24,000 bases of DNA, taken from assembly GCF_024498255.1 (NCBI RefSeq), contig NZ_CP101808.1, positions 423,345-447,344 of the forward strand, written 5' to 3'. Shown one piece after another: positions 3,875 through 24,000 of this stretch. The notes under the pieces are model-generated. The model searched no databases. It worked only from the letters and a program-made list of their open reading frames with translations, and was not told the DNA's origin. Made by a program: the position numbers and the translations under genes. Origin of the DNA: Mycoplasmopsis equigenitalium. GTDB taxonomy: Bacteria; Bacillota_I; Bacilli_A; Mycoplasmatales; Metamycoplasmataceae. The first letter of the stretch is position 1. Every line of letters begins with the position of its first letter.

Positions 3875-5032
3875 TTAATTAACATCGTTTTTATCAAGGT
3901 TAATTGTTAGAAAAACCGGACAATGATCTGAAATAAACTGGTATGGATATGATTCGGGATCGCTTGGGGGTGTTTTTTTGCTTTTAATAACATCATCGAT
4001 TCATTTTTGATCAATATAACCGTCTTTTAACGCATCATAAATTTTAATCAAACCAGGATCACTGATTAATGCATCACCCTTATAAATCATTTTGTCATAG
4101 GGATTTGCATATTTACCAAATTTATTACCAAGCGAAGTTTTTCATTCATCCAAATCTTTGGAATAAAAAGTGTATCCTGCATCAATTATTGGTTTAAAGG
4201 TAAGTGCTTCTTTTCCTAATTTAATATTAGTATCACCCATAAAAATTAGTTCGTTATTTTCACCGTCTCACTGATCAAACTCGGCCATTGCCGCACTTAA
4301 ATTAAGTGCTTCGTTGGCTTCTTGTGCGCCTATACCATCACTAAAATTTTCATTAAAATCGCTTGCTAATACTTCATCTTTTTTAGCTACACCAGGTGAA
4401 TCAAAATGACTAAAAACACAAGTAAAATCTTGGTTTGTACTTAAATCTAGAAATTTAGCACCATAAGGTGGGCGTACATAAGAGTATTTGCTAGCACTAG
4501 TGTTTTTTAAATCGAGTAAATTACTTCATGGAATATTTTCGTAAAGTTTTTCGTCAATTAACTTTAATTTACTTGCTTTATAAATGATTCCCACATGTTC
4601 GCGTTGTTGCGAATCTGCTTCAAGTCATTTATTGTTTTTTCATGCCTTGTAATCCTTGCTAGAAATTGTGTATTGTCAAACAGAAGTTGGTTGCTTTTGA
4701 TTAAGAAGTTCAATAATCGCGCTAACGCCAAGTACATCATCAATTTCTGTTAAACCAACAACATCGAAATTTTCTTTATCAATAATAGTAGAAAGCGCAA
4801 TATTTTTTAATTCTTTTTTACCATTTTGATTTTTGACGTTTCAATGCGCGATTTTTATTTTACTTAAATCTTGTGGGTTAGGTAAAGGAGTTGGATTAGG
4901 GGTTGGTGTAGGTTGTGGCTTCAAATCGGGGGTTTTGGGGCGTTTTTGTCAAAAAGGTGTACAAGAAAAGGCCATAAATAATGGTGTTATTGCTGTTAAA
5001 AGGGTAAATGTTTTCCAAGCCTTTTGCTTCAT
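3875..5032 (-). CDS. Membrane nuclease-like lipoprotein of the endonuclease/exonuclease/phosphatase (EEP) family, MnuA-like
   Basis: I translated the whole frame by hand: 385 codons, nine in-frame UGA, no TAA or TAG. The signal peptide MKQKAWKTFTLLTAITPLFMAFSC has a lipobox and is followed by a P/T-rich linker. EEP motifs VVGLTEI, FMGDTN and SDHCPVF are present. Stop is TAA at 3875-3877. The gene is absent from the ORF track. Confidence 0.8.
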
Positions 5033-7308: not shown

Positions 7309-9450
7309 TTAAATCATACAGGTTTCACATTCAAGGTTTTCGCTACCTTCAAGTACCTCTTGACGTAATCTAACATAATAAATTGAAGAACATTTTTTAG
7401 TAAATGCTCGAATATATGCCTTGTTTAAATCACGAGTAGTTGCTTTGTCGGTCATAAATAAGGTAAGCGAAATGGCTTGATCAACGTGTTTTTGTGCTTC
7501 CGCAACTAAGTCAATAATTGGATTAGGTCCTAACTCGTAAGCTCCCTTTTCATAATATGGTAAGTTGGTATTGGTAATTTTAAAGGCTGGAACATATACC
7601 CGACCAACTTTCCCCTCTTTTCTAATTTCAACTGGTGCTACAACAGGTTGTAAACTTGGAGTACATGAGCTAAGATATGAAATTGAGCCAGTTGGTGCAA
7701 TCGCCATTAAGTGTGAATTGGCCAACCCTTCCTTCATAATTTTTTTCGAAAGTGCGATTCATTCAGCCTGAGTTGGAATATGAATATTGGCTTTTTCAAA
7801 AATATGTTTTACTTTATTTGTTTTTGGTAAATATTCATCTTCATCACATTTGGTGTATTTTTCTAAATACTTACCATTAGCATATTGACTCTCGCTAAAA
7901 CCTTTAAATTTTCCAAATTCAGATACCATTTTGTTCGATGCTTTGTAAGCATAATAAGCAACGGTGTAAAAGAAAATATTGGTAAAATCTAGGGCTTCGG
8001 GCGAATCATAATAAACACCATTAGTTGCAAGAAAACCATGCATATTCATTGCTCCCAAACCTAAGGCATGGTTAGCTTCGTTACCATTTTTAACGCTTGG
8101 TGCACTATCTAAATCAGCTTGTCGTGAAACAACATCTAGAGCACGAATTGCCCGTTCAACAACATTACTAAAATCGTCTGCTGATTCCATCATGTAAGCA
8201 ATATTTAAACTACCCAAGTTACATGAAATATCTTTTCCAATTGTTTTAAATGTTAAGTCTTGATTAAATGTTGATTCGGTTGATGGTTGTGCTATTTCTG
8301 AACAAAGGTTTGACATTACAATTCGACCTGGGTGTGGATTACGGTTATTAACCGTATCATCAAATAAAATATATGGATAACCAGACTCGAATTGTAATTC
8401 TGCTATTGTTTGGAAAATTTTTCGAGCATTAATGTATGTTTTTTTAATGCGAGGATTCTTAACTAAATTATGGTACTCTTGCGTAATTGAGATATCACTA
8501 AACGATTTACCATACTCTTTTTGAACATCATATGGTGAGAAAAGTGCCATTTCTTCGTTATTTTTAGCTAATTCAAAGGTAATATCAGGAACCACTAAAC
8601 CAAGTGAAAGCGACTTAATTCTAATTTTTTCATCCGCATTTTCACGTTTTGTATCAAGAAACGACATTACATCAGGGTGGTGCACATTAATATAAACCGC
8701 ACCAGCACCAGGTCTTTGGCCAAGTTGATTTGCATAGCTAAATGAGTCTTCAAGTAATTTCATAACTGGAATTAGCCCGGTTGCTTGGTTCTCAAGATTC
8801 TTAATTGGTGCCCCAAATTCACGTAAATTAGTTAAACAAAGTGCCACACCACCGGCGCGTTTTGATAATTGTAAACTAGTCGAAATTCCCCGAGCGATTG
8901 ATTCCATATTGTCTTCGACACGAAGTAAATAACACGAGACGAATTCGCCCCGTTGTTTTTTACCTGCATTTAAGAATGTTGGCGTCGCTGGTTGAAAACG
9001 ACCTAGCATCATATCTTTGACTAAATTGTGTGCCCGTTCAAAGTTTCCATCACCTAAAACAAGCGCGTTCATCACCACTCTGTGTTCATAAGTTTCTAGA
9101 TACTCTTGTTCGTTAAATGATTTTAAACAATATGTACTAAAAAACTTAAACGCCCCCATAAAACCAGGGAATTTGTGATTGAATGATTTTGCATACTCGA
9201 TAAGTTCAACAACTTTTTCTGTTCCATATTTTGCAATTCATTCTGGTTCATAGTAATGATTTTCAACTAAATAGAATAAACGATCTTGTTCACTTTCAAA
9301 TTTTTTCATTTTAGGCAAAACATGGTGCTTCATATATTGTTTAACTGATTCTTTATCCGATTCAAAATGGTATTTACCATTTATTTTCATACTTGCTATC
9401 GCATTTAGAGTGATGTATTCATCATCCTCTTTCATTAATTTACTGCTCAT
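7309..9450 (-). CDS. nrdE: Class Ib ribonucleotide reductase alpha subunit NrdE
   Basis: Track ORFs 7309..7737, 7759..9159 and 9238..9450 share one frame and are joined by UGA Trp codons. Class I RNR motifs are present, including NLCSEI and the C-terminal CxxC. Stop is TAA at 7309-7311. Confidence 0.95.
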
Positions 9451-9491: not shown

Positions 9492-9965
9492 TCAAAAATC
9501 GGTCAAAATTTGTCTTACTCTAGTAACATCGTCATTTGTACCACGTAACTCAAATTGGTAAAGTAATGGTACATTTAATTTTTTACTTAAAATTGGACCA
9601 GCAAGAGCAAATGTTTCATTAAAGTTGGTGTTACCTGAAACAATTACCCCTTTACAGTGATCGCGATTTTGTTTAACATTTAAAAATTTAATCACTTCTT
9701 TTGGCACGGCGCCTTCTTTGAATTCGCCGCCGCCACTAAATGTTGGACAAAATAACACATAGTCACGATCAACTAAAATAGTACCTTCAACTGGTTTGTC
9801 ATCTTTATTAACTAGTTTTTTTTCGTATGGAATACGTAATGAATCTAATTTAAGCTTTTGGGTCACAAATGTGTGTGTATTTTCGGTTAAACTTGAATAA
9901 TAAACACAAAGAATGTCACCACTTGGTTTGTCAATTCCTTTAACTTTAATAATATCTTTATGCAT
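9492..9965 (-). CDS. nrdI: Flavodoxin-like protein NrdI
   Basis: Lies between nrdF and nrdE. Start is probably the ATG at 9965 (MHKDIIKV..), 2 nt after the nrdF stop. Sequence VYYSSLTENTHTFV...GNTNFNETFALAG is typical of NrdI. Confidence 0.88.
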   Translation of the reverse strand: MHKDIIKVKGIDKPSGDILCVYYSSLTENTHTFVTQKLKLDSLRIPYEKKLVNKDDKPVEGTILVDRDYVLFCPTFSGGGEFKEGAVPKEVIKFLNVKQNRDHCKGVIVSGNTNFNETFALAGPILSKKLNVPLLYQFELRGTNDDVTRVRQILTDF

Positions 9966-12571: not shown

Positions 12572-14107
12572 ATGAATCAAAACAACGATATCGACAACGA
12601 TATCAGACAAAACAACCCTGAAAATTCACAAAATGTGAATGGTAATGGGGTTGTTACTCAGAAAAAACAAAGCTGAGTAGATCGTTTCTTTCGTTTAAGT
12701 GAAAGAAACACAAATTGAAAAAGGGAAATTATTGCCGGAATTATTACATTCCTTGCAATGTGCTATATTCTAGTTGTTAACCCAAGTATGCTTGAGTTTA
12801 GGGTTGATAAACTCGATATTAATGGAAAACCAATAATCGATGCTGTTACCGGTAAACCAGAAACAGTAGTTCTTGGACTTCCATGGGGTGGTGCATTTCT
12901 TGCAACAGCGCTTTCGGCTTTTGTCGGAACAATGGTTATGGGATTCTTTGGTAATTTACCACTAGGACTAGCTCCAGGAATGGGAATCAATGCTTTCTTT
13001 ACATATGTAGTAATGGGTCAATTTAAATATAAACCAGAAGAAGCTCTTGGTGCTGCATTACTTGCTGGTCTTCTCTTCTTAATTATTTCTTTAACACCAC
13101 TCAGAAGAATTATGATCAAAGCAATACCAAAGGATCTAAAATTAGCAATCGGTGCTGGAATTGGATTCTTTATCGCTTTTGTAGGATTACAAAATGCTGG
13201 AATTATTGTTAAAAATCCTGGTACTGCTGTAGCACTTGGCGATTTAACTCAACCTAAAGTTTTACTTGCATTAGGTGGAATCGTTTTATCAATTATTCTT
13301 TATTCAATCAATTTTAAATTTAACTTTATTGTTTCAATCGTAGCTACTACTGTTGTAGGAATTATTATTAATTATATTTACTACGCTGTAAATAATGGTG
13401 CGACTCTAGATGGTTTACCAAAATTTGAAGGATTTGATTACTCAACCTTAGCAGAATACAAAAACGTAATTGGTAAAGGTGTAGTCGCAATCTTTACTCA
13501 AAACTTCTGAAAAATTAGTTTAATTGGTATTTTAGTATCATTCTTGTTTGTTGATATGTTCGATACAATTGGAACTTTTATGGGAGTAACCGAACCATTA
13601 GGAATCGTTGATGAAAAAGGTGAACTTAAAGGCGCACATAAAGGTCTTATTTCAGACTCAATTGCAACTGTAGCAGGTGCCGTTTTAGGAACAAGTGCTG
13701 TAACAACTTATATTGAGTCAACTGCAGGTATTAAAGCAGGTGGCAAAACCGGACTTACCGCAGTTACTATTGCAGTTTTATTTGCGTTATCAATTCCACT
13801 TTTCCCTGCTATCAAAATATTTAGTACAAGCGCATCAACATCTATGGTGTTGTTCACTGTTGGAGCAATGATGGTTGTACAGCTTAAAAATCTTAACTGA
13901 GAAGATGTAACCATTACTTTACCCGCATTTGCAACCATTCTCTTTATGACACTAACATACTCAATTACAAACGGTATTGCATTTGGATTTATTAGTTTCG
14001 TGGTTATGCAAATGGTTCGTGGTAAATTCAAAGAAATTCACCCAATGATGTATGGTTTAGCGGTAGCATTTATTGCCTACTTTGCTCTCACAGCACTTCT
14101 CGTTTAA
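12572..14107 (+). CDS. NCS2/AzgA-family purine (adenine/guanine/hypoxanthine) permease
   Basis: ATG at 12572 after an AAAGGGG RBS. Track ORFs 12758..13510 and 13544..13900 are joined in one frame by UGA Trp codons, four in total. Sequence FFRLSERNTNWKREIIAGIITFLAMCYILVVNPSML, multiple TM segments and ESTAGI fit this family. Stop is TAA at 14105-14107. Confidence 0.88.
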
Positions 14108-14389: not shown

Positions 14390-14932
14390 ATGTTCAAAAA
14401 TAAAAATGCACTTTATAATTTAATTAAAGATGCAACTAAACTAACCAAGAAGGAGGTAATGTCTATTTTAAAGCGTTACTCGGATGTTGATATGTTTCAA
14501 ATGATGTTTGAAAACGAACCTAATATCCTTTGATTGATTGCAAAAATAGATCAAAATAATATGAAACAAAAACCCGAAAACGATAAATTCAAACAAATAG
14601 ATCAGAAATTTGATCAAATTGATAAAAAATTCAAACAAATAGATGAAAAATTTGCTCAAGTAGATCAGAGATTTGATCAAATTGATAAGAAATTCGAACA
14701 GATAGATGAAAAATTTGTTCAAATAGACCAAAGATTTGATCAAATTGATAAGAGATTTGATAGCTTTGAGGCGAAATTTGAAGAAAAGTTTGAAACACTT
14801 ACTAAAACCTTACTTGGTGCAATTGCTGGGGTTGAAACTAGATTATCAAATAGATTAGATAAAATTGAAAAAGATGTTGCCGAACTTAAAGACAGGGTTA
14901 CCGTGTTAGAAAGTTATCATATGTCCGCTTAA
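14390..14932 (+). CDS. Hypothetical coiled-coil protein with about 10 tandem KFxQIDx heptads
   Basis: ATG at 14390 after an AAAGGAGGTG RBS. One UGA Trp (14531) joins the N-terminal 47 aa to track ORF 14534..14932. Total 180 aa. No signal peptide or catalytic motif was recognised. Confidence 0.75.
14585..14794 (+). repeat. Tandem 21-bp (7-codon) coding repeat, about 10 units, with a higher-order 63-bp unit
   Basis: KFKQIDQ KFDQIDK KFKQIDE KFAQVDQ RFDQIDK KFEQIDE KFVQIDQ RFDQIDK RFDSFEA KFEEKFE. The 63-bp blocks 14627-14689 and 14690-14752 are near-identical. Confidence 0.9.
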
Positions 14933-15023: not shown

Positions 15024-15100
15024 TGGGGCAAGCGACGGGAATCGAACCCGCGAATGTCGGAGCCACAACCCGATGCGTTAACCACTTCGCCACACTCGCC
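15024..15100 (-). tRNA. tRNA-His (GTG)
   Basis: Reverse complement is GGCGAGTGTGGCGAAGTGGTTAACGCATCGGGTTGTGGCTCCGA...GGTTCGATTCCCGTCGCTTGCCCCA. The extra 5' G(-1) typical of tRNA-His is present and the anticodon loop is TTGTGGC. Confidence 0.92.
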
Positions 15101-15499: not shown

Positions 15500-15517
15500 T
15501 TTTTTTTTTTTTTTTTT
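15500..15517 (+). repeat. Homopolymeric poly(T)18 tract upstream of the giant surface-protein gene
   Basis: Direct count gives ...atc + T18 + ggc. The tract lies 115 nt upstream of the ATG at 15632, and its last two T form part of a TTGGCA -35-like hexamer (15516-15521). Confidence 0.95.
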
Positions 15518-15543: not shown

Positions 15544-15566
15544 ATATTATATTTAGAATATAATAT
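15544..15566 (+). promoter_or_regulatory. Perfect 10-bp-arm palindrome overlapping a TATAAT -10 candidate (15559-15564)
   Basis: ATATTATATT-tag-AATATAATAT. The arms are exact reverse complements. TATAAT lies in the right arm, about 68 nt before the start codon. Confidence 0.3.
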
Positions 15567-15631
15567 TAATGATTTTATACTAATGTATATATAAAAATGA
15601 TTAAACAAACGTATACGAGAAAGGACAAGAT

Positions 15632-18600
15632 ATGTCTAAGAAAAAGAAAGTTATATTAGGATTACTACTTGTTGCGCCTTTAGCAGCTGTAGCCGCATCA
15701 ACTGGTGTTCTATATTGAAAACAACAAACCGAAAAACCAATTTCTGCTTATTATGAATTAAAACCCATTAAAGATAAAAGTGAACGTTTAGCAAGTAATG
15801 TTAAGCAAAATGAAATAGGTTTTATTAATTTCCCTCAAGATGCCACATTCACTGTAAAAAGTATAAGTGCTGATGATGGACTCGGAAAATTACAACTTCA
15901 AATTACAATCACCCAAAATGGTAAAGTAACTGAATTAAATAAAGAAGTTATTGGTTTTAAACCAGCATTTAGTTTTTTTGATGATTTGTTAAAAACAGAG
16001 CTCAAAACAGTTTCGACAGGAAAATTACCATCAAAAGTGTCATATCCTGATCTTGCTGCTTTTAACGCCGACACCAATAACAAACTTGGATACATTAATG
16101 AATTAGGTTACACATATAGCGTACAAGAAGTGACAAACATCGATTACAAGGGACAAAAAATTGTTGCTGTAACCGTCCAAAAAGACGGCAAAAGCATTAT
16201 TACAAAAAAGTTAACCGTTAGTGGATTTAAAGCAATTTCTGGCAAAGAAAATGTTGAAAAAGCAGCAGAACTTTTCCTCAATGCTTCTACCATAACAAAA
16301 GGTGAGTTTTTACCAACTCAAATTAAATACGACAATTTTGAAGACTTTAAAAACGATGCCATAATTAATACTAATGATTCAATTACATCAATTGAACAAA
16401 AATTTGGAGTAATAATTACCAATATCACCAATATTGGCGAAGCACAAAATAATGATGATTTAGGTACAAAAACAATTAAATTGTTAATTACTCAAAAAGA
16501 TAACCCAAGCATTAAAAAAGAAGTGCTTGTAACTATCAAAGGTTACAACACTAATGCAAAAGACATGGAAAAAGTTAATGCTGCATTAGCGCAAATTACA
16601 GATGACAAAATCGAAGAAACAAATGAACACGCTAAACTTAAACCTTCGCTTGTACAATACGTTGATGTCCAAGGTTTTGATGAAGACTTACCTAATGTAC
16701 ATATTTTAAAACTTAGAAACACATACAAAGTAATAATTGAAGTTGTTAAAATAGGAACAACAACTAAAGCAATTAACCATGATGATTTAGGAACAAAAGA
16801 AGTTAAGATTCGTGTTTCAAGAAACAATTCATTTAAAGAAAAAACCATTACAATTAGTGGTTATAACACAGCTGATGGGTACAAAAAATACCAAGAAATG
16901 GAATTGATCGCGCAAGCAAAAGCAAGATTAACCGATACTCCAACAATTAAAAACACCAACGATTTAGCATCAGAAACAAAATATACTTTATATCAAGAAC
17001 TAGATGATGACATCGCTCATAATTTACGCGGTATTGAAGCTGAATTAGGTGTTAACTTTATATTCGATGTTAATAATTACGCAATTGATGACGATGTTGC
17101 GGGAACAAAGACAATTAAATTAAAAATTGTAGCAGGCGATACAACTGACTCAACCCATACATTCAAGATTACAAACTTTAAGCCTGAAAATATATACAAT
17201 AAAGATCAGGTTGATTTAGCATTCGCAAATCTTAATACCGAAGCTTCAACAATTAATAATACAAACACTCTTCCTGAAGATGTAACTTATAACAACCTAG
17301 ATCTAGCAACACTTGTTGCTGATACTGTTTTGGCGGGCAGTGGCGATACAATTAACTTATTGCGCGTTCAAAATACATATAAAGTTGAGTTAAATGTAAC
17401 ATTAAAAGAAAACACCTTGGATGGTCGCAAAATTTTAAATGTTGTTATTAGTCGAGGTACAGGTGCTAATAAAGCGACTTCTGGTGTTAAAGAAGTTGTA
17501 ATTTGTGGTTACAAAACCAAAGCAAAAGCCGATAATGAAGCGGCTGTTGAAAATACAAAAAATGCAATTCTTCAAGAATATTCAACAAAAAATACTGAAA
17601 AAACTGCAGATTTGGATATTATAAATTACGATCTTAACAACTTACTAGCTACAGTTAACGATCCAAGTAATACTTTAAAACCAACTAACGGTGTAAGTAT
17701 CAAAATAAATGCCGAAAACAATGATGATGGATTTAAAATTTTAACTTTAGAATTAAGTAAAGGCGAAGGGAAAGATGCCGTTACTGTCACAAAAGACATT
17801 AAAATTATTAATTATCTAACAGCTGCAGGTTATGATGAGAAATTAGTGGATGATACACTTGCTGCAATCAATAAGAAAACAGAAGATACAACTAAAACGC
17901 ATCAAAATGAATTTATTAATGACCCATATAATAGCGACTTAGCATTACTTGATGCTGATACTACTTTCAACTTGCAAAAAATTGCATCTGAAACTGGTAC
18001 AACAATTACCTTTACAACAAGTGATAATCCTGATGGAACAAAAACAATTAATGTTAGTGTAAAACGTGGTGCAACAACTAAAACTACTACCCTCAAAATA
18101 ACCGGTTTCCAAACCGAACAAGACCATAATGATTTATTAGAACTTGATGCTGCCGCTTTATTAATTACAGCGCAAGAAACAATAAACAACAAAACAAAAC
18201 AAGCAAGTGAAGTTAAGTATCTAGATATTAATGCGGTAGATACTGACATTGCTCTTGATTTACAAAATGATGTGATTGTTGCCAAAGGTTTAAGTGGAAT
18301 TCAAATTGTTAGTGTTAACAATGGAGATGGTGTAAAAACCTTAAATCTTACCCTTACCAAAGGTAATGTATCTAAATCAGGAGTTAATCTTAAAATCACT
18401 GGTTTTAGAACAGCACAATTAGCTGCTAATTACGCAAAAGTTGAGAGTGCAATTAATCAAATTATTTCCGGAAAAGATGCTGATGTTAGTGACTTTTTGA
18501 CAAAAAACTATAAATATAAAGATAAAACCGACCCGATTGCTACACTAGATGCTGGAATTCGTGAATTAGACTTAAATCAAATTGCACAAACAAATGGTGT

Positions 18601-21600
18601 AACACTAACCATAAGTGAAGAAAAAGATTTTGATGGTTATAAACTAGTAACAATTAATGTCACTTGTGGTGATGTACCAAATGTTGCCAGCGCAACAAAA
18701 GAAATTAAAGTTGTTGGATTCAAAACCCAAGCAACATACGATAAAGAACAAGCGGATAAAGCAGATATCGCTACAGTTGCTGCTGCAAAAAGTCAATTAC
18801 AAGCAATTATCAATAACCAAGTAACAATTAATAACAAAGATTACCTACCAGAAGCAGTTACATATGTAACTCTTAGTGAATTTGATGAAGATATTGCTTT
18901 TGACATTAATTCATTAATGGTTAATGGGCTAAAAATTGAATTAGAAAGTTCAAGATCAAATAATGATTTAGGAACAAAAGAAATTGAATTATTAATTAGT
19001 AAAGGTGTTGGCAGCGATACGATTACACTTACTGTTTCAGAATATTTAACGACAGCCAAAAATGATGAAAACAAAGTTAATGAATTGATTAACTTATTAC
19101 CTTCAAGTGTTAAAACACTAACTAACAAAGGTAAAATACCTAGTGCAGTGAATTACAATAACGAGTTAGCAAAATTAGATGCTGACACAGGTTTAAACTT
19201 AGTTAATAAAGCGGTGGATGGCATAAGTATTATAATTACCAGTGATACAGAAGATGCTGCTGCTGGTCAAAAAAATCTTGTTCTAACAATTACTAAAGAC
19301 GCAACAACTAAAACTCATAATTTAACTATTAGTGGTTTTAAAACAACTAAACAAGTTGAAGATGAAAACACTGTAAATCAGGTACTTGGTTTAATTCAAA
19401 ATGAATACGTAACAAAAACTCATACCCAAGTTCAAGCAAAAGATGTAAATTATGAAAGAAACTTTACAACATTCGCTAACGATACCGATACAACTTTATT
19501 AAGTTATCTATCCGTTCCTTATTTAGTAACAATTAACATTATCAACACTGAAGAAAATCACGATGGTTTTAAAAATATAACTTTACAAGTTACTAAAGGT
19601 GACACAGTTAAAGAAAAACAAATAAAAGTAACTGGTTACGCAACACAAAAAGATATTAATACAAAATTAGTGACCTGAGCTAAGAGTCAATTACTTAACA
19701 CTTACACAAGCAATGGTAATGAAAATAAATTACCAAGCGCAGTAACATACTCAGAAATTCAAGACATTATAAACAACACTAATTTAGTTGTTGATAACCT
19801 TACAAGTAAAGGTGTAAAGGTTACAATTCAAACCCAACAAGATACAGAGTCGGGTACCAAAACAATTACGCTTAACTTAAGTGTTGGAAACGGCGCAGAC
19901 GAAGTAACTGATACCAAAGTAATTAAAATCGAAGGTTTTAAAACCAAAGCTAAAGACGATAATGAAAAAGCTGTTGAAAGTGCAAAAAATGCAATTCTTC
20001 AAGAATATTCAACAAAAAATACTGAAAAAATGGCAAATCACGATGATTTTACAAATGAAATTACGAAGTTAATTGCTAGTGTCGAAGATGCCGGCAACAC
20101 GCTTTCACCAGCAGGTGTTACTGTTAGATTAATTACCGAAACTAACCACGATGGTTACAAACTTGTTTCACTAGAATTAAGTAAAGGTAACGGCGAAGAT
20201 GCCGTAGTTGTTAAAAAAGAAAATATTAAGATTAATGGTTATATGGCTGCAGCTGCATATAATGAAAAACAAGTAGACAAAGCAATTGCAAAAATTAATC
20301 TTAATAAAGAAGATGTTACAAAATCACATCTAAATGAGTACATTAATGATCCATATAACAATGTGTTAGCGTCGCTTGATGCTGATACAACTTTCAACTT
20401 ACAAGGAATTGCTTCTGAAACTGGTACAACAATTACCTTTACAACAACCGACAATACTGATGGAACAAAGACAATTAATGTAAGAGTAACTCGAAATGCC
20501 ACAACACAAAACACAACTCTTAAAGTTACAGGCTTCCAAACCAAACAAGATTATGATGATTTGAACGCGGTTAATAGTTCAGTTGCAAAAATTAGTGCTA
20601 TCCAAGCAAATGACAGAACAACAACTTCACATAAAAATACATCATCATCAGGAGCTAAGTATTCTAATATTAATGAACTTGATACCGATATTACTTACGA
20701 TTTAAATTCAATCATAACAGCGGATGGAACAACAATTTCAATTGTAAAAGAAGAAAATAATGATGATAGAACTAAAATAGTTCATTTAAGAGTAACAAAA
20801 GGTAAAGCAAGCAAAGAAGTAAAATTAGAAGTTTTAGGATATCAAACAAAAGAATACGCTGATGCATATAATAAATTTATGATCGCTAAGTCAAAAGTTT
20901 CTAGAAATCAAACTATAACAAGATACAGTCATTTGCTTGCAAATCAAATACATTACTTTAATGGTGGTCCTACTCCAGTTGATCAACTTGATCTAGATAT
21001 TGTCAAACCTGTTGATAGAGTTAAATTTAGTGAAATTACCTCACAGTATAATGTTGAATTCTTTATAATTGAGGAAACTTCTTTTGCCGGGTTTAAAACA
21101 TTTAAAATTTCTATTACAGCAAAAGACCCTATACTTAAAAATATGTCAGATACTCTTGAAATAAGCGTCAATGGTTTTGCAACACATGATCAGCTTTTTG
21201 CAAAAGAAAATGCTGAGAAAGTTGAAAGAATTAGAGCATATATCGCGGCCAATAATAATCAAATAACTAAGAAATACAAAAATTCGACGATGGGTGAGGC
21301 ATTTAAAATTTACACTAAAGATGTTGAAAGTATTTACGAGATTGTAAAAGATACAGAACTAAAATTATATGATGAATTAAGAAAACCCGAAAACGCCAAT
21401 GTTAGTGTAAAAATAAATATGAATAACAGCAAGTATGGAACAAATCATGGTCAAATGTTTATGCTTATTTCATTCACAATTCAATGTTATGATGCACAAG
21501 CAACTGAAACAATTTCAGTTAGCGGATTCATGCCAGAATATGAAAAAGCAATTAATGAAGCGGTTAAGTCATTACCAACAACAGTATCAACCATTAACAA

Positions 21601-24000
21601 TAAAAGTAAACTTCCTTCTGCTACGAATTACTCTAATAATTTAACATTATTGGATGCTGATACAGGTTTAAATTTATCAACAAAACTTGCTAATTACTCA
21701 AGTTTATACAACATTACTTTTAGCGAAATTTCGAACAATGATGCCGCTGGTACAAAAGAGATCGAGATCACTTTTACAGACAATGACTATTACAATCACT
21801 ACACCAAAACTCATAGACTTACAATTACTGGTTTCACAACAACTAAACAAATCGAAGATGAAAAAACAGTAAATGAAGTAATTAATTTAATTGAAAATGA
21901 ATACGTAACAATTAACAATAAAGAAAAACAAGCAAAAGATGTAAATTACCACAGAAACTTTACAACCCTTGCTAATGACACCAACCCTGTATTGTTAAGT
22001 TACTTAGAAGCGCCTAAATCTGTCGAAATTAGTATCATCAACACTGAAGATAATCACGATGGTTTTAAAAATATAACTCTACAAGTTACTAAAGGCGACT
22101 CAGTTGAAGAAAAACAAATAAAAGTAACTGGTTACGCAACACAAAAAGATATCAACACAAAATTAGTAGCTTGAGCAAAAAATCAATTATTAGATACTTA
22201 CACAAGCAACGGTAACGAAAACAAATTACCAAATGCATTAACATACAACACAATCCAAGAAATTGTAAACAACACTAATTTAGTTGTTGATAACCTTACA
22301 AGTAAAGGTGTAAAGGTTACAATTCAAACCCAACAAGATACAGAGTCGGGTACCAAAACAATTGCGCTTAACTTAAGTGTTGGAAGTGGTGCAGACGAAG
22401 TAACTGATACCAAAGTAATTACAATCGAAGGCTTTAAAACCAAAGCTAAAGACGATAATGAAAAAGCTGTTGAAAGTGCGAAAAATGCAATTCTTCAAGA
22501 ATATTCAACAAAAAATACTGAAAAAATGGCAAATCAGGATGATTTTGCAAATGAAATTGCGAAGTTAATTGCTAGTGTCGAAGATGCTGGCAACACGCTT
22601 TCACCAGCAGGTGTCACTGTTAGATTAATTACCGAAACTAACCACGATGGTTACAAACTTGTTTCACTAGAACTAAGTAAAGGTAACGGCGAAGATGCCG
22701 TAGTTGTTAAAAAAGAAAATATTAAGATTAATAGTTATATGACCGCTGCTGCATATGATGCAAAACAAGTGGACAAAGCAATTGCAAAAATTAATCTTAA
22801 TAAAGAAGATGTTACAAAATCACATCTAAATGAGTACATTAATGATCCATATAACAATGTGTTAGCGTCGCTTGATGCTGATACAACTTTCAACTTACAA
22901 GGAATTGCTTCTGAAACTGGTACAACAATTACCTTTACAACAAGTGATAATCCTGATGGAACAAAGACAATTAATGTAAGTGTAAATCGGGGAGCTTCAA
23001 CACAAAACACAACTCTTAAAGTTACAGGATTCCAAACCAAACAAGATTATGATGATTTACAAGTTCTTGAAGCAGCATCTAACCTCTTTACCGACCAAGT
23101 TACAATCAACAATCAAGATATTCAAACATCACAAATTACATACCAAAATCTTCAAGATGTTGACGATGATACCCCACTTAATATTCAAGTAGATATTATT
23201 GAAGCTAAAGCACTTAAAGGTATCGAAGTTATTAACATCACTAACGAAGATGGATATAAACTTGTAAACCTTAGATTATTAAAAGGTAATGTAACAAAAG
23301 AAGTAAGTTTTAAAGTAACTGGCTTTAGAACAGCACTTCAAGTCCTAAACCACAATCAAGTTGCTGAAGCACTTGCTAAACTTGTTCATGGAACAGATAC
23401 AAATGTTAGTCACTCACTAACAAAAGATTATAAATATACAACTCAAAGTGATCCAATCACTACCCTTGATGCTGGTGTTAATGAAATGAACCTAGCAGAA
23501 ATCATTCAAACTCATGGTGTTAGTCTTGTAATAACAAATGAAGCAGATTTTGATGGTTATAAAGTCTTGACGATCAAGGTTTCACGTGGTAGTGGTCTTG
23601 ACCTAGCAACAACAACTAAGGAAATTAAAATTTCTGGTTTTAAAACCAACGCAATTCACGAACAAGAATTACGTGATGAAGCTAATCGTCAAGCCGTAGC
23701 ACAAGTTAAAACACAACTTCAAACAATCATTAACAATCGAGTTACAAAATTCAATAAGGATAAACTTCCAAGCACAGTGACTTATACTAACATCAATAAA
23801 CTTGATGAAGATATCGACTTTGATCTTCTAGCATTAATGACTGATGGCTTAACAATTCGTTTAGGAACAACTAGTCATAATGATGATGCCGGAAGCAAGA
23901 CAATTGAATTATTAATTGATAAAGGTGCAGGTAGTGATAAAGTTTCAATTGAAGTTACAGGTTATTTAACAACTACTCAAGATAATCTAAACAAGATCAA
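15632..24000 (+). CDS. Giant repetitive membrane-anchored surface protein (at least 2,789 aa, 3' partial) with about 27 tandem ~100-aa modules; candidate mycoplasma lipoprotein-associated (Lipoprotein_17-like) repeat domain
   Basis: ATG at 15632 after a GAAAGGA RBS. N terminus MSKKKKVILGLLLVAPLAAVAASTGVLYW is a signal/anchor with no lipobox Cys. UGA Trp codons at 15716, 19676 and 22172 join track ORFs 15986..19678 and 20030..22174 to the untracked 22175..24000 segment, which I hand-translated with no stops. The recurring module is a helical linker, then (K)LPSxVxY, DxDT, NDDxGTKxIxLxIxKG, and I(T/S)GF(K/Q)T. Confidence 0.85.
17515..18125 (+). repeat. Older, more diverged copy of the two-module block found at 19937-20562 and 22433-23058
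   Basis: AAAAAATGCAATTCTTCAAGAATATTCAACAAAAAATACTGAAAAAA is shared identically by all three copies. The offset from copy 1 to copy 2 is 2,427 bp, in frame. Protein similarity is about 55-60% by eye. Confidence 0.8.
19310..20562 (+). repeat. Super-repeat copy A (partner at 21806..23058, offset exactly 2,496 bp, in frame)
   Basis: The core 19771-20562 matches 22267-23058 with only scattered substitutions, roughly 95% by eye. The flanks 19310-19770 and 21806-22266 are about 80% similar. Confidence 0.9.
21806..23058 (+). repeat. Super-repeat copy B (partner of 19310..20562)
   Basis: Same as copy A. A long identical run, for example, is ACTAATTTAGTTGTTGATAACCTTACAAGTAAAGGTGTAAAGGTTACAATTCAAACCCAACAAGATACAGAGTCGGGTACCAAAACAATT. 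Confidence 0.9.

Follow-up and report, generated by a model that had tools for sequence, protein, structure and literature searches.

The 24,000-nt window of the Mycoplasmopsis equigenitalium genome analysed here (contig NZ_CP101808.1, positions 423,345 to 447,344 of the forward strand) ends within a giant gene for a surface protein that is built from modules of ~100 amino acids (aa). Two near-identical stretches of this gene, termed cores below, lie exactly 2,496 bp apart. Our analysis indicates, with a probability of about 70%, that the cores are the matching parts of copies 2 and 3 of an older three-fold repeat of eight modules, and that they have been re-homogenised by layered gene conversion. 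The underlying observations are the anatomy of the three-copy repeat, a graded divergence between the copies, a tract composed of two layers, mosaic patches shared with copy 1, and an orthologue that contains a single unit.

The two cores (19771-20562 and 22267-23058) differ at 33 of 792 positions, i.e. they are 95.8% identical without gaps, which agrees with the few dozen substitutions and the exact spacing reported in the first-pass annotation. As had also been described, their offset corresponds to 832 codons or eight modules in frame; the modules are M15 to M23, and the frame is open under genetic code 4. Maximum-likelihood change points at this offset were found at 19307, 19770, and 20563, and they separate identities of 0.30, 0.797, 0.958, and 0.32; the previously proposed boundaries (19310, 19771, and 20562) are within 1-3 nt of the fitted values. 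A model with two levels of identity was favoured over a single tract by a log-likelihood difference of 40.5, and the identities of flank and core differ with a Fisher p value of 3e-19. The longest exact runs comprise 172 nt (20276-20447) and 98 nt (19770-19867). Downstream of 20562 the similarity at this offset breaks off abruptly. Upstream, a weaker continuation with the 21-nt indel noted earlier was recovered on the diagonal with an offset of 2,475 (19045-19239, 58.5% nt identity), and the module pair M12/M20 has an aa identity of 43%, compared with a median background of 26%.

For comparison, other module pairs were aligned and had a mean nt identity of 48%, with a maximum of 59% in a sample of at most 30 random pairs. 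The core is thus far more similar than any other module pair in the self-comparison, as the first-pass annotation had anticipated. Shared 25-mers occur only at offsets of 2,496 (399 instances), 4,923 (54), and 2,427 (34). The designation of the region as a 2,496-bp segmental duplication is not supported in this form, because only 1,256 bp of each period are alike. Similarity is confined to the segment between the end of M12 and M16, which matches that between the end of M20 and M24; M17, M18, and M19 have background identities of 33, 25, and 18% aa with M25, M26, and M27, respectively.

The eight-module repeat and its three copies

An all-against-all comparison of the modules yielded a median aa identity of 26% and a 95th percentile of 35%. 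The matrix contains a signal with a period of eight, visible at lags 8 and 16 across M7-M30. The 2,496-bp spacing of the cores is the period of this higher-order repeat, which is present three times (Table 1). At the nt level, the third, older copy (17430-19080) matches at offsets of 2,427 and 4,920-4,923; it was absent from the first-pass annotation. Copies 1 and 3 share evenly ~50% of their aa (48-58%), except for module type e with 76%. Copy 2 is a mosaic, i.e. its d and e modules match copy 3 at 96% and 90%, its b and c modules match copy 1 at 73% and 88%, and its f, g, h, and a modules (M17-M20), the most divergent of all, group with neither copy.

Modules M17-M19 are at background identity with all other modules of the giant protein, with the local paralogues, and with the orthologue of M. 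elephantis. The values are 37, 25, and 27% aa with M9, M10, and M11, and 29, 27, and 18% aa with the M. elephantis counterparts. A search for a donor of these modules or of the cores in three downstream paralogues and the upstream flank (20 kb) revealed no nt similarity; at the protein level, the best match of M17 in the flanking paralogues is 36.5% over 52 aa, and M18 and M19 have none at E<=1e-3. With 112 and 117 aa, respectively, M18 and M19 exceed most modules in length, and their scores with the hidden Markov model (HMM) of the module are weak, i.e. 26 and 38 bits, versus 66 bits for M17.

The closest relative of the C-terminal domain of the giant protein is found in M. elephantis (WP_169734558.1, 1,765 aa), with 51% identity in this domain. 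The M. elephantis gene is a positional orthologue that follows mraZ, rsmH, EIIA, nrdE, nrdI, nrdF, L7/L12, L10, and tRNA-His. The two proteins share the neighbourhood of their genes, the N-terminus, the order of modules, and the C-terminal domain. The M. elephantis protein has 14 modules in a collinear layout, i.e. M1, M3-M6, one d-e-f-g-h-a-b-c unit, M31, and the C-terminal domain. In contrast, the M. equigenitalium protein has 31 modules, which is the M. elephantis architecture plus M2 and two additional eight-module units. For 8 of 8 module types, the M. elephantis module is more distant from both copy 1 and copy 3 than these two copies are from each other; amplification therefore took place after the split of the two lineages, or the copies have undergone concerted evolution since. 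In both cases, the length of the array has changed by eight-module units (2 x 8) during evolution.

Graded divergence and the case for gene conversion

Synonymous (dS) and non-synonymous (dN) divergences were estimated along the tract. The whole core has a dS of 0.094, a dN of 0.029, and a dN/dS ratio of ~0.3, whereas the values for the flank (154 codons, 19310-19771) are 0.62 and 0.16. Older copy pairs have dS values of 0.7-2.1, and the values for the individual module pairs are included in Table 1. The low dS of the core indicates that its identity reflects recency and not constraint at the protein level. A single event cannot have produced the approximately seven-fold gap in dS from flank to core. 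The first-pass annotation had suggested "recent duplication or ongoing gene conversion". The second possibility fits the data, but a single recent duplication does not, because dS ranges from 0.07 to 0.84 along one contiguous tract. An intact tandem segmental duplication should be alike over the whole period and uniformly diverged; here, similarity is confined to 1,256 of 2,496 bp, with module-pair dS values of 0.066-0.84. The abrupt shared 3' end together with an identity that decays in the 5' direction is the expected trace of nested conversion tracts of differing lengths.

Two hallmarks of gene conversion are present, i.e. a sharp block of high identity that includes synonymous sites and lies inside older repeats, and copy relationships that change along the unit. 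The latter mosaicism extends to copy 1, which contains two patches of elevated identity with copies 2 and 3 in a background of ~60% in the three-way nt alignment (Table 1). The second patch includes a 56-nt exact run with copy 3 (17987-18042 and 22910-22965). When copy 1 was used to polarise the differences between the cores, they clustered by lineage (Fisher p = 0.025), with changes mainly on the copy 3 side in M15/M23 and mainly on the copy 2 side in M16/M24. Eleven changes are clustered within 54 nt (20448-20501). The 20 kb of flanks have no nt-level similarity to the giant gene, and therefore only intragenic exchange partners are detectable within the ~30 kb examined.

Table 1 Features of the giant gene and divergence of module pairs
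Feature	Coordinates (strand)	Description
Giant surface-protein gene, genetic code 4	15632..24000 (+)	open frame, 0 stops under table 4; runs past the window end
N-terminal hydrophobic segment, aa 8-26	15632..15721 (+)	membrane anchor or uncleaved signal; without lipobox cysteine
Repeat copy 1	17513..19939 (+)	M7-M14, types d e f g h a b c
Copy 1 patch	17513..17603 (+)	~92% identity with copies 2 and 3, including an exact run of 48 nt
Second copy 1 patch	17930..18110 (+)	~85-90% identity with copies 2 and 3, judged by eye in the three-way alignment
Older layer, upstream copy	19307..19769 (+)	end of M12, M13, first part of M14; 79.7% identical to 21803-22265
In-frame TGA (Trp, code 4)	19676..19678 (+)	partner TGA at 22172-22174, exactly 2,496 bp apart
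Core, upstream copy	19770..20562 (+)	end of M14, complete M15 and M16, initial 9 codons of M17
Repeat copy 2	19940..22435 (+)	M15-M22, mosaic: front like copy 3, rear like copy 1
Modules M17-M19	20537..21529 (+)	f g h positions of copy 2; without close counterpart; core homology ends at their 5' edge
Older layer, downstream copy	21803..22265 (+)	partner of 19307..19769
Core, downstream copy	22266..23058 (+)	end of M22, complete M23 and M24, initial 9 codons of M25
Repeat copy 3	22436..24000 (+)	M23-M30; M28-M30 past the window, to about window-equivalent 24856
M12/M20		dS 0.84
M13/M21		dS 0.53
M14/M22		dS 0.31
M15/M23		dS 0.066
M16/M24		dS 0.134
M17/M25		dS 0.93

These results are best explained by the following history. 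Once the lineages of M. equigenitalium and M. elephantis had separated, a single eight-module unit would have become three copies in the former, and these would then have diverged to ~50% protein identity. Non-reciprocal homologous recombination (gene conversion) between neighbouring copies may have re-homogenised 1,256 bp in at least two nested episodes, leaving an older layer, now ~80% identical, and a recent 0.8-kb layer, now ~96% identical. Both layers end on their 3' side at the M16-M17 and M24-M25 boundaries, where the homology between the copies stops, and the patches in common with copy 1 would indicate that all three copies take part. The tract probably results from RecA-type conversion between misaligned copies. 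Mollicutes typically retain recA and lack mutS and mutL, a gene complement that would tolerate a mismatch of 4%.

The same pairing, if it were resolved as a crossover, would delete or duplicate exactly 832 codons, yielding proteins of 2,663 or 4,327 aa, and the reading frame would be kept because the offset is a multiple of three. In this respect the first-pass annotation was correct. A crossover of this kind would alter the length of the predicted stalk by exactly eight modules and hence the distance of the C-terminal domain from the membrane.

Several points weigh against this overall explanation. It is built on one genome, which is too little to fix the direction and the number of the conversion events, and it does not account for modules M17-M19. 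Most of the array, with ~48% nt identity, is too divergent to recombine. Furthermore, no length polymorphism was observed between the two assemblies that carry the gene, both of which encode an identical 3,495-aa product, and these are almost certainly from the same strain, as only 1 nt in 18.3 kb distinguishes the window from LR215022.1.

The best-surviving alternative is that copy 2 was made by a fairly recent eight-module tandem duplication through unequal crossing-over between two older repeat copies, that M17-M20 were subsequently replaced or diverged fast, and that later conversion gave the 96% core. An unequal crossover predicts a middle copy with a front like copy 3 and a rear like copy 1, as observed, and the removal of any eight consecutive modules at the same phase leaves two clean units that are evenly ~50% identical. 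The orthologue with one unit shows that unit-wise amplification has occurred. However, M20 is less similar to M12 (43%) than M12 is to M28 (50%), and M17-M19 do not rise above background with either of the possible parents, so that extra events are required, and the 20 kb of flanking sequence contain no donor for them. In addition, the dS values of flank (0.62) and core (0.094) would make conversion necessary anyway. We therefore consider a late duplication unlikely.

Purifying selection on a protein segment that is needed twice could in principle keep the cores alike without recent recombination, and the dN/dS ratio of ~0.3 is indeed indicative of some protein constraint. In contrast, the synonymous divergence of the core is also very low (0.094), compared with 0.3-0.9 in the adjoining modules and 0.7-2.1 in older copies, selection at the amino acid level would not be expected to leave exact nt runs of 172 and 98 nt, and the same module types in copy 1 have diverged freely to 58-75%. 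Protein-level selection was thus rejected as the cause of the core identity, and its probability is very low. An assembly or polishing artefact, in which reads of one copy were mis-mapped onto the other, is hardly credible: consensus polishing can homogenise repeats of this size, and frameshifts at A-runs by which other members of the family differ between the two assemblies reveal some assembly noise, but separate assemblies (805,386 and 806,532 bp) encode the identical protein, the 33 core differences survive and include synonymous and non-synonymous changes in sensible proportions, the 10.5-kb frame is unbroken, and the graded flank is unlike a collapse.

The giant protein, its relatives, and the scope for size variation

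The giant gene extends ~2.1 kb beyond the window; the complete gene (locus L003, 10001-20488) has an intact frame over 10.5 kb and encodes a product of 3,495 aa (WP_129721655.1; UUD36681.1). Under table 11, the region would appear as two open reading frames (ORFs), 15986-19678 and 20030-22174, each ending at a TGA. The translations around the two TGA codons are LVT*AKS (19676-19678) and LVA*AKN (22172-22174). The neighbouring gene for a 511-aa xanthine/uracil permease contains four TGA codons that must be read as Trp. TGA codons as stops, and thus the giant gene as a pseudogene, were rejected because the adjacent housekeeping genes require code 4. A database protein corresponding to the ORF 20030-22174 of the table 11 reading was looked up, and no record was found.

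The giant protein matches the Pfam family PF04200 (Lipoprotein_17) with 171.6 bits, compared with a gathering cut-off of 22.4, in nine stretches, and it belongs to the tandem Lipoprotein-17 surface proteins of Mollicutes. An HMM iterated on the protein itself identified 31 modules of ~100 aa, which are followed by a non-repeated C-terminal domain of ~310 aa. The sole NCBIfam match is a weak one to Gli349. Kyte-Doolittle windows above 1.6 are confined to the N-terminus (starts at aa 4-11, maximum 2.17). The first cysteine of the protein is residue 625, so that the lipobox typical of bacterial lipoproteins is lacking. Given this lack and the single hydrophobic segment (aa 8-26), the protein is predicted to be membrane-anchored and not lipid-modified.

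An AlphaFold2 model of M15-M16, based on an alignment of module pairs, had a predicted local distance difference test (pLDDT) value of 87.6. In each modelled module, the N-terminal part is helical and is succeeded by a sheet of three strands. The order of elements (H, helix; E, strand) is H-H-E-E-E in M15, with one long helix and a shorter one, and H-(E)-H-H-E-E-E in M16, with shorter helices and a short strand. The model agrees with the published description of the Lipoprotein-17 stalk module (bioRxiv 10.1101/2022.09.07.507039). Searches of the PDB with the M15-M16 pair, by sequence profile and by Foldseek, returned nothing significant.

The C-terminal domain (aa 3182-3495; L003 19546-20488) lies past the window end and has no Pfam match. 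Only six relatives were found among 1.84 billion representative proteins. Five are full-length proteins of 1,138-1,765 aa, i.e. large proteins that carry the domain at or near their C-terminus, and the sixth is a 171-aa Logan fragment of the giant gene itself. The named relatives belong to M. equigenitalium and M. elephantis and are annotated as Lipoprotein-17 proteins. A single-sequence AlphaFold model of the domain has a mostly beta appearance; with a pLDDT of 32, its confidence is low and it was not used.

Modules of the Lipoprotein-17 type form the beads of flexible surface chains in Mvsp, Gli123, and Gli349 of M. mobile (bioRxiv 10.1101/2022.09.07.507039). The giant protein shares with these proteins, including MvspI with its 16 Lipoprotein-17 domains, the ~100-aa PF04200 module arranged in long surface chains. 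It has about double the number of modules of MvspI, and it differs from all of them in having an N-terminal hydrophobic anchor instead of a lipobox, the eight-module repeat, and a distinct C-terminal domain. No gliding genes are found near the giant gene.

The closest functional analogy is offered by the Lmp proteins (Lmp1, Lmp3) of M. hominis. Lmp proteins change in size when ~500-bp repeats are inserted or deleted, and cell agglutination is correlated with a lower repeat number (PMC524362; PMC2751442). However, Lmp repeats are adjacent and alike, whereas the similar stretches of the giant protein are eight modules apart and belong to a different repeat family. The 57-aa Lmp repeat motif (PMC2751442) was searched for in the giant protein with a regular expression that allowed up to 25 substitutions, with 0 matches, and membership in the Lmp family was rejected on this ground. 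In Vaa of M. hominis, the number (1-5) and the order of ~110-aa modules vary among isolates, and duplication or deletion together with recombinational exchange has been suggested (PMC524362). In contrast to the giant protein with its Lipoprotein-17 array, Vaa, a small lipoprotein, contains coiled-coil cassettes and is subject to poly-A phase variation.

For Periscope Proteins, it has been proposed that a high DNA identity of the repeats is what drives recombination within the gene and changes in length (PMC8201768), and PF04200 was listed as a stalk domain in a screen for fibrillar adhesins (PMC9210967). An anchor, a rod of tandem domains, and a distal domain are common to the giant protein and to Periscope Proteins and fibrillar adhesins such as SasG, Rib, and Sgo_0707. 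Periscope repeats are near-identical throughout, while neighbouring modules of the giant protein have ~26% aa identity and one non-adjacent pair is near-identical. The high DNA identity among tandem repeats that is typical of Periscope Proteins is thus not a general property of this array (median 26% aa, ~48% nt), in which only one non-adjacent pair of stretches reaches 96%. The Periscope anchor is a C-terminal sortase motif, whereas that of the giant protein is N-terminal and located in the membrane. Periscope length varies among strains; the giant protein, compared in two near-identical assemblies only, has the same length in both.

The first-pass annotation had interpreted the cores as a substrate for size variation. 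We likewise infer this role from the sequence, and its only empirical support is the comparison between species, with one unit versus three. Present-day size switching appears plausible in view of exact runs of up to 172 nt, all in frame. The array as a whole is mostly too divergent, and therefore any switching would yield no more than one or a few products, unlike in classical variable-repeat proteins. The stronger proposal, that the eight-module repeat is a working length switch and that recombination between the cores switches clonal populations among forms of the protein with 23, 31, and 39 modules, is quite unlikely. If it were true, the higher-order layout would be selected, because it would place identical domains far apart, avoiding misfolding between neighbours, and yet keep a long DNA homology. 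It would represent a Periscope-like mechanism in a wall-less bacterium, and M17-M19 would exist only in the long forms.

Scans of a genome collection were carried out with the core peptide, for which the source species was not among the matches, and with the permease, for which the best match was 60% identical; the latter matches were unrelated Mollicutes and Firmicutes, and the source species was again absent. A scan of a metagenome collection with the core yielded no match. A search for homologous proteins with the whole part of the giant protein encoded in the window recovered this protein alone.

Mycoplasmas use variable surface proteins for evasion of the host immune system and for tuning of adhesion, and length change through intragenic repeats is documented. 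The locus is a clean and datable case of a very long stalk protein that appears to have grown by whole eight-module units and that recombination may still be editing. It predicts specific alternative alleles, longer or shorter by 832 codons, in horse isolates. It is an unusually long and orderly example of a well-known kind of mycoplasma biology and does not involve a new principle.

Neighbouring genes and further observations

A run of 18 T residues (T18, 15500-15517) precedes the start codon of the giant gene by 114 nt and a weak promoter-like site (15552-15581) by ~35 nt. The T18 tract is a candidate for a slipped-strand expression switch. Its length does not differ between the window and LR215022.1, and no T18 tract is present upstream of the M. 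elephantis orthologue. The assembly LR215022.1 (NCTC) has a single difference from the window, A against C at position 9839. It is labelled Mycoplasmopsis californica, whereas RefSeq and the second assembly assign the same proteins to M. equigenitalium, and the NCTC label thus looks wrong; the window is probably derived from the second assembly (806,532 bp).

A tRNA-His gene adjoins the giant gene upstream (15024-15099, minus strand), as it does in M. elephantis (locus L084, ~7830-7905). The variable vaa/vmp region of M. hominis is also near a tRNA-His gene (PMC524362). Further upstream, an ORF of 180 aa (14390-14932, plus strand) contains 21-nt and 63-nt tandem repeats (14594-14761) with a heptad-like pattern of the QID-KF type. 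This ORF and the adjacent permease gene (12572-14107) are absent from the matching interval of M. elephantis.

Three further Lipoprotein-17 genes are located downstream of the giant gene (L003 20642-30488) and encode proteins of 731, 1,187, and 1,479 aa. They have 25-35% identity to the modules of the giant protein, and the 731-aa paralogue has a true lipobox (...SVTSC). The N-terminal ~120 aa of the giant C-terminal domain recur in two of the three. Elsewhere in the genome, a sub-family of Lipoprotein-17 paralogues of ~1,400 aa (P0006 and P0009-P0016, which form one cluster at 90% identity) is intact in one assembly and split into two or three pieces in the other. The breaks are situated just after runs of lysine codons, e.g. 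...GFKKLDAN versus ...GFKSLML and ...SQTKKDLAEL versus ...SQTKKI, and they probably correspond to A-runs. They represent either homopolymer sequencing errors or real phase variation.

In the remaining part of the window, a lipoprotein gene (3875-5032, minus strand) encodes a lipobox (...MAFSC) and a proline-rich linker. The motifs of its product recall the endonuclease/exonuclease/phosphatase fold, and we presume that it may be a putative membrane nuclease. Eight tRNA genes, for Phe, Asp, Met (three genes), Ser, Ala, and Pro, are clustered beside obg at 1825-2526 on the minus strand.

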